Assembly (NCBI GenBank): GCA_963674745.2
Contig: CAXXDV010000001.1
Coordinates: forward strand, 2,630,361-2,694,360
Source: Desulfosudaceae bacterium
Lineage (GTDB): Bacteria > Desulfobacterota > Desulfobacteria > Desulfobacterales > Desulfosudaceae
Length of the DNA: 64,000 bases
Direction: 5' to 3'
The notes beneath the pieces were generated by a model that made no database searches, was not told the origin of the DNA, and worked only from the letters and a program-made list of their open reading frames with translations. The position numbers were made by a program, and so were the translations under genes. Positions 1-5,507 of this stretch are shown in pieces; position 1 is the stretch's first letter; each line of letters opens with the position of its first letter.

Positions 1-840
1 CGTGTAATTCTTACTTCGGCCGTCACTGAAATTAATGACCAGGGCTTTCGCCTGGTTGTTTGTATTCACCAGGCTGACACCGGTCCAGAAGTTATTGTTT
101 GAAGCGATGTGTGAAATGTAAATGTTCGACGTGTTGATTTCTTTTACAGCCGGTATGGCCGTCCTGTATGCTCCTGATTGAAAGAATTTCGTATAACCTT
201 CAACCTCGGCAACCGTATTCGTGGAAAAAACGATGTAACCGATATTGGCGTGGTTGACAAAGTCATTGGCAACAGTGATTTGTTTGCGGCCCCGGGGCCC
301 AAGCGTAACGTCCATGACCTCCAGGAGGACACCACTGTTGCTTTTGGCCTTCAGCGTACCGTTGAGGGTCTGATTGGTACTGGTATTGATAATCGCAATC
401 TCCGTCTGCCAGGGCGACCGCGTGGTAACATGCGGGAAATAAAGATAGGTGACGTCCAAGGTATCAATGAAATACGCGGTCACGGATTTACTCTGTGAGG
501 CCGTGTTAACCGTTATCGAGTTGGTGGTGTATATAACCGTGCTGCCATTGGCCTCGACTTTCCAGTAGTCAAAGGCATACCCCGTTGCCGGGACCGCCGT
601 CAACGTATAAGTATCGCTGCACGTATAATCCGCGGGATAGTACGGTGGAATGGGGTTACCGGAAAAATCATTAGAGGACATATCACCACCACCGGCTGGG
701 CTGACATTCACGGTCAGCGCTGGGCCAGGTCAGGCGGCGGTTGCCGCACCGGGCATGATCAGGGTGATACAAGAGAAGGCAAGGATCAGGCAAAACAAAA
801 GAAGGCTTTTGTGGTTTAAAAAATGCGTTTTATATATCAT
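1..840 (-). CDS. Secreted paralog C (5' part, runs off the window): signal peptide, in-frame UGA (candidate Sec37), InlB-B-repeat-like domain, FPH...WxT repeats
   Basis: Hand translation: AAGGA RBS, ATG 840, MIYKTHFLNHKSLLLFCLILAFSCITLIMPGAATAA-TGA(730-732)-PGPALTVNVSPAGGGDMSS...YTCSDTYTLTAVPATGYAFDYW...YLYFPHVTTRSPWQTEIAIIN..., open to base 1 and clearly homologous to the two upstream paralogs. Absent from the ORF track. Confidence 0.85.
700..718 (-). promoter_or_regulatory. Candidate bacterial SECIS hairpin of paralog C
   Basis: GCTGAC-CGTGAAT-GTCAGC, a 6-bp stem starting 11 nt after TGA 730-732; possible lower stem ACC(U)GGC/GCCGGU. Confidence 0.7.
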
Positions 841-896
841 GTTTTTTTCCTTGTTTGTTGAAAAAATTGAACATTAACGAACGGAACGCAAGCCCA

Positions 897-2690
897 TCAG
901 TGTAAGGCTGGAAGCCCGTCCATCAGCAATCCGTCTGAAGAGGCGGTTAACTGAAACCCCACGATATTTTTGCTTGAGGTAAAGGCAATGTAACCGGCAA
1001 AAGAAACGTTCTGGGGTGCAAAGAAATTTTCCACCAGGTCCACTTTTTTGGCAAGACTGCCCACGGTGAAAGTGCGGGAGGCCAATGCCACGCCTTCGTT
1101 GGTGTAGGCTGTCAGCGTAATTGTAGCATCACCGGCTTCCGCGTTGACAAAGGCGATACCGGTCCATCCGTCGGCTTCGATTTTGGGGAAAATACCCTGC
1201 CTGGCCCCGGCACCGTTTCTTTCAGCGTAGGCGGCCATTTTATTGTTATCCAGGGTGCCGAAAAGTTCAAAACCGACCAGGGGCTGGGAAGCGTTGATCT
1301 TGAACCAGGCTGTCTCGGATGGCAGGTTAAGACCCCTAACCACACCGATATATTTTTCTTTTCCGCCGAGTACAAGTGTGGATTGGGTCAGCATTGCTCC
1401 TGTTACACTATAAGGGGTAATCGTAATCTGCGTGCTCAAGTTCCATGGATTGTAGGCGACGACACCTGTCCACCAGAAGGCCATATTGGCGATATGGGGA
1501 TAGTAAACGACGGAGGTGGTATCATCCGTCAGCAGAATGCCATCCAGATGCTTTAAACCGCCGAACATTTCCATGCCGAGAATGCCGTAGGCATTGGTGA
1601 TCACGGCAGACTGGATATCCGGTTGTGATCCACCCATCAGGCTGGAGATCGTAAATGCTTTATGCTCTTTGGCGTCAAGGGTTATTACAGCGGTTCGTCC
1701 GTTGTTAAAGGTAATAACCGGATTTTGAGGCGCTGAATTTGTATTCAAAAGGCTGATACCGGTCCAGAACCGTTCGTTCGAGGCAATGTGCGGAATATAA
1801 ATATTCTGTGTGTTGACCTCGGTTGCCGCCGGTACTGCCGCCCGGTAGAGCCCTTCCTGTGAGAACTGGGTATACCCCTGAAGGCCGGTATCGGCGGCGT
1901 AAAAGATGACGTAGCCAATGTTATCATCGGATACAAAGGGGTTGGAAAAGTCAGTTACAACATTGTACTCCAGTCGCTCGTGGGGCGCAATCGTGACAGA
2001 TTTGGTCTCTATCAGTTCTCCGGAATCACTGAATGCTTTCAGTTTTCCATTGATGCTTTGGGTGGCGTTGGTATTGATTATACCGATGACCGTTTTCCAG
2101 GGGAGGTCCGCGTAGATATGGGAGAAGTAGAGCGCAGGTGTTCCCTCTACTTCATCACCGGGACCCTGGTCTGTGTCATCGCCACCATCACCGTCGTCGC
2201 CACCATCACCGTCATCACCACCATCACCGTCATCACCGTTATCACCACCACCGGTTCCCGGAGGCGGCTGCGCGCCCGTGTTTGAAAAGTGGGCTGTCAC
2301 ATATTTGCTGTCTGTTTCAATGTTCACGGTAACCGGGTTCTGAGTGGTTGTGGACACGGTAATTGTTTCGCCGGTACAAGCCACAGTGATCGTTTCAATT
2401 TCCCAGTAAACAAAAGAATACCCGTCTGCCGCATTTGCTTCCGCTCTTAACGTGTATTCGGAACTGGTTGAAAAATTTTCCGGATATGTGTAAGGTGGGC
2501 GACTGAAACTATAGCCGAAATCATCGGAATAGATATCACCGCCGCCGGCCGGGCTGACATCCACGGTCAGCTTGGGACCGCCTCAAGCCAGTGCCTTTCC
2601 GGGGGTTGCCACCACAATGATGGTTAACGCCCAAATCGTGCAAGCGACAAAAAAATTAAGACTATGGAAGAAGATATTATTTCGTCCCAT
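897..2690 (-). CDS. Secreted paralog B, 597 aa with in-frame UGA (candidate Sec36); InlB-B-repeat-like domain, Gly/Asp linker, four FPH...WxT beta-repeat domains
   Basis: AAGGAGG RBS, ATG 2690, MGRNNIFFHSLNFFVACTIWALTIIVVATPGKALA-TGA(2583-2585)-GGPKLT, in frame with track ORF 897..2564. Confidence 0.85.
2176..2250 (-). repeat. 18-bp tandem repeat encoding a (GDDGDG)n acidic linker
   Basis: Repeated ccaccatcaccgtc(g/a)tc units; protein GGGDNGDDGDGGDDGDGGDDGDGGDDT; absent from paralogs A and C. Confidence 0.85.
2553..2571 (-). promoter_or_regulatory. Candidate bacterial SECIS hairpin of paralog B
   Basis: GCTGAC-CGTGGAT-GTCAGC, 11 nt after TGA 2583-2585; possible lower stem CGGUC/GGCCG. Confidence 0.7.
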
Positions 2691-2728
2691 ATTGTTCCTC
2701 CTTATTCGGAAGTTTCGTCAACGAACAA

Positions 2729-4384
2729 TCAATCAAGGGCCGGCAGTCCGTCTAACATCTTGTCGTCGGAAGATCCGTTCAGCTGAAAACCCACGACGTT
2801 TCTGTCCGAACGAAAGCCGATGTAACTGGCAATCGAGATGTTGCTGTTGGAAAAGATGCTTTCCGCCATCTTGACCACTTTGGCATGGCTGTTGACTCTG
2901 AGTGTCGCCGTAGCCACGTTCATCCCGTCGTTCCGGTAAGCGGTCAGGGTCACATTGGCGGGGCTTACTTCTGTATTAACAAAAGCAATGCCCGTCCAAC
3001 CGTCCTTTTCAAGCTTGGCAAAAGCACCTTGCTTACTTCCGGCACCGCTTTGTTCTGCATAAGCCGCCAGTTTCTGGTTATCCAGGGTGCTGAACAGCTC
3101 GAATCCGACCATCGGCGAAGTGGCGGTCAACCTGAACCAGGCCGTCTGATCGGGAAGGTTAAGGTTTCTGACCAGGCCGATATATTTATCATTTGGCCCG
3201 ATACTGATGGTTGAACCGGTCAGCGCGTTTCCCAACTCGGAGTAAGGCGTGACGGTTATCGTGTTGGTCGTGTTCGACGGGTTATAACCGACGATACCGG
3301 TCCACCATGATCGGGTGTCGGCCACGTGGGGATAATATATGGTAATCACCGTGTCGTCCGAAAGTACAATGCCATCCAACTGCGTATTTGTGCCGAAAAG
3401 TTCCAGGCCGACAATACCGCTGGCATTGGTAATCCTGGCCGATTTGATGTTCGGTTGCGCTTCACCTCCGAACAGGCTGGCGATGGTAAACGCCTTATGC
3501 TCGTAAGGGTTAAGCGTGACATTAGCCTGGCGGCCGTCATTAAACAGAATCGTCAGTTTCTTGGTCACGGAGCCCGAGTTGACCAGGCTTATTCCGGTCC
3601 AGAAATTGTCGTTGGAGGCAATATGCGGCACATAAATGTCGCCCGTGTTCGCCTCTTTTATGGCGGGAACGGCGGTTCTGAATTTTCCTTCCTGGTAAAA
3701 TTTCGTGTAACCAACGGCACCTTCTCTATCTCCATGAAAGGTAATGTGCCCGATTTCTTCCGGGTTCGAAAACCAGTCGCCAATGTTCAGCTCTCTCCGA
3801 CCATGGGGATAAAGGGTGATCGATTTGTTATCTATTACCTGGCCGCTGTCAGTGTAGGCCCTCAACGTGCCGAGCATGTTCTGATCAGCATTGGTGTTGA
3901 TAATGCATATTTCCGTTTCCCATGGTGATTTGGTGGACACGTGTGGAAAAAACAGGGATGGCGCTTGGCTGAGCTCAAGAAAATAGGCCGTAACAGATTT
4001 TCCCTCTTCTAAAATACTGACGCTAATGGGATTCTGGGTGGAAAAATCGGTTGATGATACGGTATCACCCTGGCAGGTACTCGTTATGGTGTCGACTTGC
4101 CAGTAGGAGAACACATATCCTGTTTCCGAGTTGGGCATTGCCATCAGGGTATAGCTGGTTGCACTTGAAAAATTTTCCGGATACGTGCTTGGCATATTGT
4201 TATACGTATCAAATTGATTTGACATAATATCTCCGCCGCCTGCCGGGCTGACATCCACGGTCAGCTTTGGGCCGCCTCAGGCAAAAGCGTTACCCGGCGT
4301 CATAATAGCGGCGCAAACCATAACCGGCAGCGCAATTAAAAAGAAAATTGTCAGACATTTTTTAAGCATACGCTTGTGAATCAT
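2729..4384 (-). CDS. Secreted paralog A, 551 aa with in-frame UGA (candidate Sec36); InlB-B-repeat-like domain plus four FPH...WxT repeat domains
   Basis: GGGAG RBS, ATG 4384, MIHKRMLKKCLTIFFLIALPVMVCAAIMTPGNAFA-TGA(4277-4279)-GGPKLT, in frame with track ORF 2729..4258. Confidence 0.85.
4247..4265 (-). promoter_or_regulatory. Candidate bacterial SECIS hairpin of paralog A
   Basis: GCTGAC-CGTGGAT-GTCAGC, 11 nt after TGA 4277-4279. Confidence 0.7.
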
Positions 4385-4565
4385 TTTTAAGTCTCCCTAA
4401 ATTAGTGCAATTTTTTACTGCTCTGGTCCGTACAGAAAGCACTGCTGAGTGGACAGGTTTTCTAAGAACTTTTCCAGACCTTCAGACACCCGTTATATAA
4501 TTTTAACGATTATATAATCGGATGATGATATTTCCCAGCTTTTTGTCAAAAAAAATAACGCTGTT

Positions 4566-4594
4566 ATTATGGGTTTTTTTTTAAGCCCTGTCAA
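4566..4594 (-). promoter_or_regulatory. Sigma70-type promoter for the paralog operon
   Basis: TTGACA (4594-4589), 17 nt spacer, CATAAT (4571-4566). Confidence 0.5.
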
Positions 4595-4682
4595 TATTTC
4601 ATATGTATTTCGTAGAGAATTTTCAATTTACTGATATCATGAAGGATAATTTATTTTGAAGCCATTATCGGGGTTATCGTCT

Positions 4683-5507
4683 TCAGGTAACATCAATTTT
4701 TTGGTTCAGGCGTTCGATGGTGGCGTTGATGTAGTCGTTATCCTCAATGTCAGCCACTATCGCCTGGTTCGGACATATAACCGCACACCGGCCGCATCCC
4801 CGGCAATTGTCATTAATGCACGCGACCCCCTCTTCCATGCCGATGCCGTCAAATATGCAGACACCTTCTGCGGTACAGGCGCCGCATCCCACGCAATCTT
4901 CCGTGACAAGCATTTTCAGGCCGGGCATGCGGCTATAATGATTCCCCAGTAACGGGTGGCTGCCGACCAACCCCCGTGTAATACAACAGCAGGGGCAACA
5001 CATACAGATCGTGAACAGCTTATCGCCCGGACCGATGCTCAGCCAGACCGTGTCGAGCTTGCTTTTGCCCACTGAAAAAACCAGCCCTTGCGCAGAGGCA
5101 TTGCGGACATGCGCTATCGCCTCTTCTACCGTTGCTTCACGACCGAGGTCAGGATGAATATCCCGTGCCGGTTCACCCAGAAAGATGCAGCCGATTTCAT
5201 GGGGGTAAGTCTCACAGGGCATGCATTCCCGGCAAATGCACTTGTGCATGATAAAACGGTAGCTTGCCTTTTCGATAAAATGTTCCGCCACCTTTGAGGG
5301 GAGAATGGTGTCCGGCCCTTTGTCAATCTCCTGATTGATGGTGATCACATTGTCATTCGGCAGGCAATAAAGCTCATCTCCCTCAAAATATTTTTTTTCA
5401 ATCATCCTGGCGAAAATTTTCATCCTGGCAGGATTGTATCTGGGAAATTTTTTAGGAAAGAATTTTTTGTAAAAGGCGACCTTTTTCAGCTGTTTTGCTT
5501 TATCCAC
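4683..5507 (-). CDS. 4Fe-4S ferredoxin-domain protein with Cys-rich central domain
   Basis: CICR...C, CMCCPCCC, CVGCGAC and CRGCGRCAVICP motifs. Confidence 0.8.
   Translation of the reverse strand: MDKAKQLKKVAFYKKFFPKKFPRYNPARMKIFARMIEKKYFEGDELYCLPNDNVITINQEIDKGPDTILPSKVAEHFIEKASYRFIMHKCICRECMPCETYPHEIGCIFLGEPARDIHPDLGREATVEEAIAHVRNASAQGLVFSVGKSKLDTVWLSIGPGDKLFTICMCCPCCCITRGLVGSHPLLGNHYSRMPGLKMLVTEDCVGCGACTAEGVCIFDGIGMEEGVACINDNCRGCGRCAVICPNQAIVADIEDNDYINATIERLNQKIDVT

Follow-up and report, generated by a model that had tools for sequence, protein, structure and literature searches.

In-frame UGA codons directly after the signal peptide in three tandem surface-protein genes of a Desulfosudaceae bacterium: a candidate family of exported selenoproteins

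Here we examine three tandem genes, A, B and C, which lie on the minus strand at positions 1-4384 of a 64,000-nucleotide (nt) stretch of DNA from a Desulfosudaceae bacterium (GenBank assembly GCA_963674745.2, contig CAXXDV010000001.1, positions 2,630,361 to 2,694,360), hereafter called the window. The host genome measures 5.5 Mb in three contigs (G000). Each of the three genes has a TGA codon directly after the part that encodes a signal peptide and, when this codon is read as selenocysteine (Sec, U), each forms a single frame with the same order of elements: a ribosome-binding site (RBS), an ATG, a signal peptide of 35-36 amino acids, the TGA and an InlB B-repeat-type domain. We consider it very likely that the UGA is decoded as Sec and that the genes are real and mis-annotated, a view that draws on the conservation of the codon among homologs, on the Sec machinery encoded in the genome and on a candidate RNA hairpin downstream of the codon.

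The locus and its reading frames

A sequence-only reading of this DNA had described an RBS, an ATG, a signal peptide of 35-36 amino acids and an in-frame TGA in all three paralogs, and each of its coordinates holds (Table 1). Shine-Dalgarno-like sites lie 4-8 nt upstream of all three ATGs, and the translated signal peptides have a charged start, a hydrophobic core and an end of the form P-G-x-A-x-A. In gene A, four of the first 12 residues are Lys or Arg and an AXA motif (A-F-A) abuts the TGA; residues 5-26 of this signal peptide are modelled as helical, with ten-residue-block confidence values of 49, 55 and 47 that are low in places. After the U, the three frames continue as [G/P]GP[K/A]LTV[D/N]VSPAGGGD and then as a long open frame; in gene A, GGPKLTVDVSPAGGGD follows directly, and in frame, after the TGA at 4279-4277. 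Inspection of the sequence found no Shine-Dalgarno-like site at a usable distance from the downstream GTGs of A, B and C. The same reading had held that gene callers would start at such a GTG, which is true of most of the homologs that we fetched from an index of 5.8 billion proteins: 22 of 28 start within LTVxVS (21 at Val and one at Leu), as a caller must if a stop lies just upstream. It is not true of A and C themselves, whose public gene calls begin at a still later ATG (P0004, MSNQF; P0021, MSSNDF).

Table 1. Positions of the features of genes A, B and C in the window, and of related genes elsewhere in the genome
Feature	Position	Strand	Details
Gene A	4384-2729	minus	ATG 4384-4382; in-frame TGA 4279-4277; terminal TGA 2731-2729; 551 codons
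Gene A RBS	4393..4397	minus	GGGAG, 8 nt before ATG 4384
Gene A signal peptide	4280..4384	minus	35 codons, MIHKRMLKK..., hydrophobic core, ends PGNAFA
Gene A UGA, proposed Sec36	4277..4279	minus	TGA in 34 distinct homologous first domains, Cys in 8 homologs
Gene A candidate hairpin	4247..4265	minus	GCUGAC-CGUGGAU-GUCAGC; codons for (K)LTVDVS; in minimum free energy (MFE) fold; hairpin alone -7.0 kcal/mol
Gene A InlB B-repeat-type first domain	3965..4276	minus	Residues 37-140; single Cys104 at 4075-4073
Gene A C-terminal module	2729..3964	minus	About 410 amino acids, four beta-sandwich domains; terminal TGA 2731-2729
Gene B	2690-897	minus	ATG 2690; in-frame TGA 2585-2583; terminal TGA 899-897; 597 codons
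Gene B RBS	2697..2703	minus	AAGGAGG, read from the sequence
Gene B signal peptide	2586..2690	minus	35 codons, ends PGKALA
Gene B UGA, proposed Sec36	2583..2585	minus	From sequence and translation
Gene B candidate hairpin	2553..2571	minus	11 nt after UGA; not in 76-nt MFE fold
Gene B mature protein	897..2582	minus	InlB-type domain, linker, C-terminal module; terminal TGA 899-897
Gene C	840-<1	minus	ATG 840; in-frame TGA 732-730; cut by window start
Gene C RBS	848..852	minus	AAGGA, read from the sequence
Gene C signal peptide	733..840	minus	36 codons, ends PGAATAA
Gene C UGA, proposed Sec37	730..732	minus	From sequence and translation
Gene C candidate hairpin	700..718	minus	GCUGAC-CGUGAAU-GUCAGC; in MFE fold; z -1.99, 7/200 shuffles fold as well
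Gene C mature protein, part in window	1..729	minus	InlB B-repeat domain, Cys74 at 621-619, start of C-terminal module
Gene C remainder (this genome)	G000:C1:2629578-2630360		Gene complete there
Gene D	C1:1646226		...DSAKAA-U-GNPRLTVNVSP
Gene E	Neighbour of D		Cys at UGA column, ...GHAEAA-C-QCELHVRVNP
Gene F	C3:1353066		...GPAEAG-U-GIDPLTVNVSP

The domain that follows the U is probably of the InlB B-repeat type. With a cut-off of 23.6 bits for PF18998 (Flg_new_2), gene C (27.4 bits) passes, as do the paralogs D (33.8) and E (28.9) from elsewhere in the genome; a third such paralog, F (19.9), and gene B (14.0) fall below, and A gives no match. For A and B, membership of the family comes from alignment only: the first domain of A aligns (A1 and A2) with the paralogs that pass, and A and B share 42-45% identity with other members. 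An AlphaFold2 model of full-length A has a mean predicted local distance difference test (pLDDT) score of 89.8, and a model of the N-terminal 140 residues, signal peptide included, has blocks of pLDDT 59-95 over residues 41-140. A Foldseek search of the isolated head domain of A against the PDB gave no match at E <= 0.001. VIA-align listed no InlB entry for it; its neighbours there are 3b2m (Z 6.2, root-mean-square deviation 3.2, 91 residues) and 5u6f (Z 4.9), in a Z range described as a common arrangement. As a lead only, the modelled head domain may resemble the Gram-positive pilin or CnaB-type domains known for intramolecular cross-links. For the C-terminal module of A, Foldseek matches arrays of macroglobulin or Ig-like domains (7q1y, E 2e-7, low template-modelling score); DUF5719 (PF18986) scores 16.5 bits on A, below its gathering cut-off of 26.2, some homologs have a precomputed PF18986 label, and the ESM Atlas returns unnamed clusters and one DUF5719 cluster for this part.

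The module of about 410 amino acids (window 2732-3964 and 900-2156) consists of four beta-sandwich repeats, each beginning at approximately YFPH[VI]A...WxT[GE]I. With at least 594 matches, it is a very common carrier in Thermodesulfobacteriota-type metagenomes, where the heads swapped onto it include reprolysin-like peptidases, rhodanese, LamG, Kelch and PKD; this genome has a fourth copy (G000:C1:713965-715185) that bears another head and lacks Sec. Gene B has, between head and module, a low-complexity linker rich in Gly and Asp (GGGDNGDDGDGGDDGDGGDDGDGGDD, about 2157-2276, minus strand), which is absent from gene A and resembles acidic linkers in the orthologs P0009, P0011 and P0017.

Homologs, decoding machinery and a candidate hairpin

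By tblastn, this genome holds five TGA paralogs (A, B, C, D and F) and one Cys paralog (E). In D, E and F alike, the head domain is followed by a pair of K319L-type PKD domains, then by a Gly run and, at the C-terminus, by a GCF[IV]xxxx tail, and the Cys protein E (339 amino acids) is as long as the TGA-type D (339) and F (342). A genome of the same genus (G002) has the same five TGA genes and one Cys gene, at 24-64% identity, and the other 58 relatives searched yielded generic InlB repeats only. We then scanned metagenomes and one genome per GTDB species with the pattern LTV[DN]VSP[AVI][GEN][GS], alongside an alignment of the Sec forms (A2). The metagenome scan gave 30 loci, in which TGA stands at the column in all copies located behind a signal peptide and in none of those that form internal repeats of larger proteins. 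Among the 14 loci of the GTDB-species scan, the succession of signal peptide, TGA and head occurs in five Desulfobacteraceae/Desulfococcus and four Dehalococcoidia metagenome-assembled genomes (MAGs), and the remaining five are internal repeats or an ordinary Bacteroidota Cys lipoprotein.

From this genome, the same-genus relative, metagenomes and MAGs we compiled 34 distinct TGA-type first domains, none of which has TAA or TAG at the UGA column, and across the two phyla concerned the signal peptides have diverged while the frames are otherwise open. Cys stands at the column in eight proteins of equal length and architecture (P0125 and P0277-P0283), and the Cys paralogs are continuous open reading frames (ORFs); among homologs of E, P0277-P0283 are full length with signal peptide and Cys, and P0284-P0286 are truncated at the motif. 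A Cys form with the A/B/C architecture turned up neither in a search of the protein index nor in a word-index search, a weak negative. A profile search of 1.84 billion representatives with the N-terminal alignment returned 17,500 matches, mostly generic multi-repeat InlB proteins.

The Sec-bearing head was found on at least five architectures: the module of about 410 amino acids of A, B and C (also in L068); PKD repeats with a GCF tail (D, F and L056); rhodanese-like, PKD and dockerin-like repeats (L046 and L047); an InlB-repeat stalk with a C-terminal membrane anchor (L050-L055, L057 and L059); and a further anchored form (L069). The C-terminus of all PKD-type members (D, E, F, P0278-P0286 and L056) consists of a Gly-rich stretch and, after it, G-C-F-[IV]-x-x-x-x-[R/H/D], located at L014 2716-2743 and 4060-4090, L015 4542-4580 and L056 about 790-830. 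This tail is too short for a membrane-spanning sorting signal and matches no NCBIfam model; it may be a new C-terminal tag or supply a second linking Cys. A separate case is locus L095 (about 800-880) of a Bacteroidota MAG, where an InlB-type first domain with an LTVDVSP start follows an ordinary lipoprotein signal (…LFFSC-SKEILQHK); this Cys lipoprotein counterpart has no TGA, and its hairpin forms five of the six pairs described below.

The genome encodes the components needed for Sec insertion. With 75.1 bits, its tRNA-Sec exceeds the cut-off of 47, and ARAGORN calls it SeC with anticodon tca; a genome profile search found selB (369.8 bits), selA (607.9 bits) and selD (368.6 bits), all above curated cut-offs. 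TGA is also an ordinary stop here, terminating three of the eight Pfam-annotated neighbouring genes and 343 of the 973 open frames of at least 500 codons. These results accord with the sequence-only reading, which had argued that UGA is not globally reassigned and had named selA, selB, selC and selD, as well as the residue of homologs at the UGA column, as the places to look: all four genes are present, and the column holds TGA in 34 distinct forms, Cys in eight and no other stop. Further afield, tRNA-Sec was found in all four other carrier genomes tested, and one of these carriers, a complete Dehalococcoidales chromosome, also has SelA and a gene with a SelB wing-3 domain 2 kb from tRNA-Sec.

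Two observations on this machinery stand apart. The selD gene (G000:C1:326061-326981) is itself a selenoprotein gene with one in-frame TGA (…VAGAG-U-ASKLAPGDL). The genome also has a divergent second SelB-like gene of 676 amino acids (G000:C3:1795403-1797430; locus L010 1492-3522, minus strand), which scores 239.9 bits on the selB model against a cut-off of 242.25 and has the SelB beta-barrel and wing-3 domains with a partial G-domain match. We considered it as a factor dedicated to the Sec-InlB genes and rejected the link: orthologs at 33-38% identity occur in at least eight of 60 relatives that lack Sec-InlB genes, and the gene was not found in the same-genus genome that has them.

The sequence-only reading had further cited as established that bacterial Sec is inserted through SelB and a hairpin 3' of the codon, and a candidate for such a selenocysteine insertion sequence (SECIS) indeed lies 11-17 nt downstream, with compensatory changes in its stem. 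The candidate has the form GCUGAC-NGUNNAU-GUCAGC, with a 6-bp stem and GU at loop positions 2-3, and starts 11 nt after the UGA in A, B and C and 14 or 17 nt after it in some relatives. Its letters are the last base of the preceding codon followed by the codons Leu(CUG)-Thr-Val-Asp/Asn-Val(GUC)-Ser(AGC). The exact motif occurs five times in the 5.5-Mb genome, always four codons after an in-frame TGA. Over 30 distinct sequences, each of the 180 pair cells is paired. The peptide leaves only two stem pairs free; L054 and L097 at the first of these, and L061 at the second, have a double change from G-C to A-U, and L050 has a G-U. None of 500 shuffles equalled these sequences in pairing or in covariation score. 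The complete stem of six pairs is present in 16 of 17 TGA-type copies of one set and 9 of 9 of another, as against 1 of 17 and 0 of 5 copies that encode the same peptide with no upstream TGA, internal repeats of the same genes included; the lone TGA-less copy with six pairs sits at a contig edge. In L069, the one TGA-type exception, where the UGA lies 13 codons before LTV and a CUU codon for Leu breaks the LTV stem, a substitute hairpin of 7 bp (GGUCGUC-AGGUUC-GACGACC, -11 kcal/mol) stands 13 nt after the UGA, within a Gly/Ser linker. The Cys paralog E has no such hairpin, and its ortholog in G002 only a different small one.

The loop letters co-vary by lineage (alignment A5, columns 13 and 16), being C-GU-G in the Desulfobacterales type and G-GU-C in most of the Dehalococcoidia type; in the latter form G13 can pair with U19, which gives 7 bp and a 5-nt loop. 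This co-variation may reflect SelB specificity or a single lineage event.

Proposed decoding and role, and alternative readings

We propose that the ribosome would start at the upstream ATG and translate a signal peptide of the general (Sec-pathway) export route, and that SelB and Sec-tRNA(Sec) would then decode the UGA as selenocysteine at the signal of the small downstream hairpin, itself formed by the codons of the first beta-strand (L-T-V-D/N-V-S) of the InlB B-repeat domain. In all members inspected, an A-x-A (or V/T-x-A/G) site ends directly before the U or one residue earlier; by the usual rules of the cleavage consensus, signal peptidase I would cut at this site and leave Sec at position +1 or +2 of an exported, non-enzymatic-looking surface protein, which is the placement that the sequence-only reading had deduced and that inspection of the AXA sites bears out. 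In the window genes the product would be an InlB-type head on four beta-sandwich domains. More broadly, the unit of signal peptide, Sec and InlB domain would act as a portable head, found also on PKD-repeat proteins, on rhodanese/PKD/dockerin-like proteins and on membrane-anchored InlB-repeat proteins. Considered as a whole, from decoding through processing to role, this account of A, B and C as intact selenoprotein genes seems to us quite probable.

What the residue would do is suggested by its possible partner. The TGA-type first domains contain exactly one Cys in 32 of 34 cases and two in the other two, and never zero, whereas non-U domains contain zero (nine domains), one (eight) or two (five). 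Mature B has a single U (U36) and a single Cys (Cys105, at 2378-2376), and within single genes the first domain has Cys where the internal repeats have Ser (TMxCxK against TMDSDK). For the partner Cys there are at least six alternative locations: behind the YP motif, within an insertion (A and B), shortly before the last strand, in SQxCAAG, in the dipeptide UC and in DAPCSYP. Since a pairing of one U with one Cys is what a selenylsulfide would produce, Sec and the single Cys of the same domain could form such a bond in a structural role, with chances that we put at even or slightly below; a staple is favoured over a fixed active site because the position of the partner wanders. On about even terms, then, the bond would serve as a covalent staple that outlasts a disulfide in reducing, sulfidic surroundings and would play the part that isopeptide or disulfide cross-links take in other surface adhesin and pilin domains. 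According to PMC7346207, selenolates far exceed thiolates in reducing strength (a shift of about -246 mV), the diselenides studied are not reduced by excess glutathione, and selenylsulfides are less stable than diselenides; these statements fit, without proving, a reduction-resistant link that contains selenium. A clear relocation of the partner Cys is seen at L091 (about 2610-2653, Desulfobacteraceae MAG), which has a U-C dipeptide (…DGG-U-CPSPV-LTVNVSP) and lacks the usual Cys after the YP motif (FSGS against F[TS]CS).

Several results weigh against this account. The family is patchy, occurring in one of 60 sampled relatives and in none of 400 sampled genomes of the phylum, and the full-length selB model scores above its cut-off in only one of the four other carrier genomes. 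Our scan pattern is the peptide that encodes the hairpin, so that forms lacking LTV[DN]VSP could not be found and neither the ratio of Sec to Cys forms nor the universality of the hairpin is free of bias, and many of the collected loci are duplicates or close kin. As to the hairpin, the 76-nt stretches downstream of the UGA fold no more stably than their shuffled versions (z +0.51, -0.52 and -1.99), and in gene B a competing structure beats the hairpin in the 76-nt MFE fold. The stem-loop is a short one (-7 kcal/mol); the peptide L-T-V-x-V-S determines four of the six pairs, which leaves only two informative, and one of the hairpin sets was picked by a pattern that already fixes most of the stem letters. 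An Rfam scan of window positions 1-5000 returned chance matches only (E 1.4-9.6). Internal repeats that lack a UGA still form four to five of the six pairs, and the peptide is therefore intrinsically near-palindromic at the level of its codons, which at the same time suggests a route by which the SECIS arose. Finally, two of the eight Cys forms (P0281 and P0282) have no second Cys in the domain.

The alternative that survives best accepts that Sec is decoded and gives it another task, that of a reactive warhead at the tip of the surface protein in place of a structural staple. Together with its nearby Cys it could serve thiol/selenol exchange, binding to soft metals, metal sulfides or sulfur surfaces, covalent adhesion or intermolecular Se-S linking, and we regard it as well alive, if somewhat doubtful. 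In the catalogue PMC13188914, as far as the available part goes, the task of Sec is redox or metal chemistry in nearly all known selenoproteins. Also in its favour, the Sec domain of the Dehalococcoidia-type members L050-L055 is the membrane-distal end of an anchored InlB-repeat stalk, the further conserved Cys in the G-rich GCF[IV] tail of PKD-type members would allow head-to-tail links, and L091 has its UC dipeptide and some Cys forms a CQC. Set against it are the many positions of the partner Cys, which are easier to accommodate in a staple than in a defined active site, and the domain content and setting of the genes: Pfam and NCBIfam scans of A, B and C found no redox-fold domain or cofactor motif, and no redox or metal genes adjoin them. 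The flanking genes, which encode an Fe-S protein, an M48 peptidase, LemA, glycogen phosphorylase and Pit/PhoU on one side and FadB-like, sigma-70, TPR and ATP-grasp proteins on the other, give no functional hint.

The remaining alternatives dispute the decoding or the processing. It is very improbable that the UGA is read through with another residue, whether by a near-cognate tRNA (Trp or Cys) or by leaky termination that the hairpin stimulates. The sequence evidence does not distinguish the inserted residue and the hairpin is small; on the other hand, the machinery is complete in this genome and tRNA-Sec is present in every other carrier tested, homologs have Cys and not Trp at the column, the stop is always TGA in the 34 distinct domains, and the spacing of the hairpin and its loop GU fit a SelB-type element when judged against the E. 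coli fdhF model.

We give slightly less credit still to the idea that Sec replaces the Cys of a lipobox, which would make these proteins lipoproteins whose Sec is diacylglycerylated by Lgt and which are cleaved by signal peptidase II. As in bacterial lipoproteins, the signal peptide is immediately followed by a chalcogen residue, which is preceded in every case by G or A; moreover, in the Bacteroidota homolog L095 an InlB-type domain belongs to an ordinary Cys lipoprotein. The lipobox, [LVI][ASTVI][GAS]C, calls for a hydrophobic residue at -3, with small ones at -2 and -1, a consensus from which many members depart, with E, K or D at -3 (AEAG-U, VEAG-U, AKAA-U, VDAA-U). In contrast to lipoproteins, all members have an AXA signal peptidase I site at -3 to -1 or -4 to -2, and the Dehalococcoidia members already have C-terminal membrane anchors.

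Least credible of all is that the TGAs are true stops, with the genes either dead or starting at a downstream GTG or ATG and the signal-peptide frame a separate small ORF or relic: public gene calls do start downstream and fold energies are unexceptional, but the 34 distinct domains, from two phyla, preserve the in-frame order of RBS, ATG, signal peptide and TGA with signal peptides that have diverged, TGA is the sole stop at the column, the Cys paralogs are uninterrupted, no usable RBS precedes the GTG, and a surface-type protein without a signal peptide makes no sense.

Significance and comparison with known systems

If Sec is decoded and acts as a staple or as a warhead for covalent adhesion, this could be the first selenoprotein family in nature to use Sec structurally and not catalytically, with a selenylsulfide that would fasten the very N-terminus of adhesin-like exported domains to a single Cys free to relocate, a SECIS drawn from its own beta-strand codons and the whole carried as a shuffleable cassette on at least five architectures in two phyla, a combined claim that we put forward tentatively. 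It would then describe a covalent cross-link for anaerobes of sulfidic sediments, where disulfides cannot persist. Catalogued prokaryotic selenoproteins are overwhelmingly redox enzymes or metal-binding proteins, and a Sec at the mature N-terminus, paired with a Cys, would point to a use of selenium in extracellular architecture or adhesion in anoxic, sulfidic habitats. A compact SECIS that overlaps a structural peptide and moves as a module bears on the origin of selenoproteins and on minimal tags for Sec insertion. The N-terminal site also suggests itself as a cheap one, given that failed decoding would release the signal peptide only. For annotation, dozens of public homologs are recorded as N-terminally truncated, cytoplasmic-looking 'hypothetical proteins', and recognising the Sec codon restores their signal peptides and true location.

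The remark of the sequence-only reading that no such selenoprotein family was known agrees with what we could consult. The family is not in the available part of the 119-family catalogue PMC13188914, and an hmmscan of 14 members (A-F and eight metagenome forms) against NCBIfam release 20.0 matched no selenoprotein family, NF049953 ('hypothetical protein DG', GUxG) included, apart from one match below the cut-off (20 bits against 115) of the rhodanese model NF041203 to the rhodanese part of L046. Literature searches found nothing that joins selenocysteine to the InlB B-repeat and nothing relevant on extracellular, selenylsulfide or signal peptidase selenoproteins.

Among known surface proteins, the family comes close to the InlB B-repeat or Listeria-Bacteroides repeats (PF18998 and PF09479), with which it shares the surface-protein contexts and, in relatives, the tandem repeats. 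These are ordinary repeats without Sec, and internal repeats have Ser where the Sec-bearing domain has Cys. The best structural neighbours of the head domain are CnaB-type isopeptide domains (Spy0128, 3b2m; Mobiluncus adhesin, 5u6f), which are likewise domains of surface stalks. The CnaB isopeptide ties the first strand to the last, and the proposed Se-S link would similarly tie the N-terminal segment to a later strand; the two differ in that the Z scores are in the common range, the chemistry is other, there is no sequence similarity, and the Se-S link is a proposal.

Exported selenoproteins are known from anaerobes, and Table 1 of PMC13188914 lists DsbA/DsbG-like proteins, thiol:disulfide interchange proteins, the ExtKL multiheme cytochrome, a DUF1573 'UGC' protein and a TonB-dependent receptor 'FCYXU'. 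These resemble the present family in being extracytoplasmic and in coming from anaerobes. One of them, DUF1573, is presumably likewise a beta-sandwich-type domain. In the entries of that table the Sec is part of a local motif within the fold, whether thioredoxin-like, heme or other, whereas here it would stand at +1 or +2 of the mature chain of an adhesin-like repeat with its partner Cys at a distance. In the Pfam and NCBIfam scans, no model for the listed families matched the present one.

In decoding, the likeness is to E. coli fdhF-type genes, which share with this family the in-frame UGA, a hairpin (from 11 nt in the window genes) and a GU in the apical loop, with one subgroup of the family having GGUC at the start of the loop; selA-selD are present and Cys homologs have their residue at the same column. 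The family hairpin differs in having only 6 bp, in overlapping the conserved first beta-strand and in its spacing of 11, 14 or 17 nt, and Rfam holds no comparable model for it. The criteria for a selenoprotein family in the available part of 10.1101/2022.07.06.499078 (Haft) are at least ten examples, TGA in 100% of them, and similarity with matching lengths across the site, and all three describe the present family. Judged from these comparisons of sequence, A, B and C very likely represent a new selenoprotein family, unusual in its proposed Sec position and its domain type, and with a predicted decoding mechanism that is the ordinary bacterial one.

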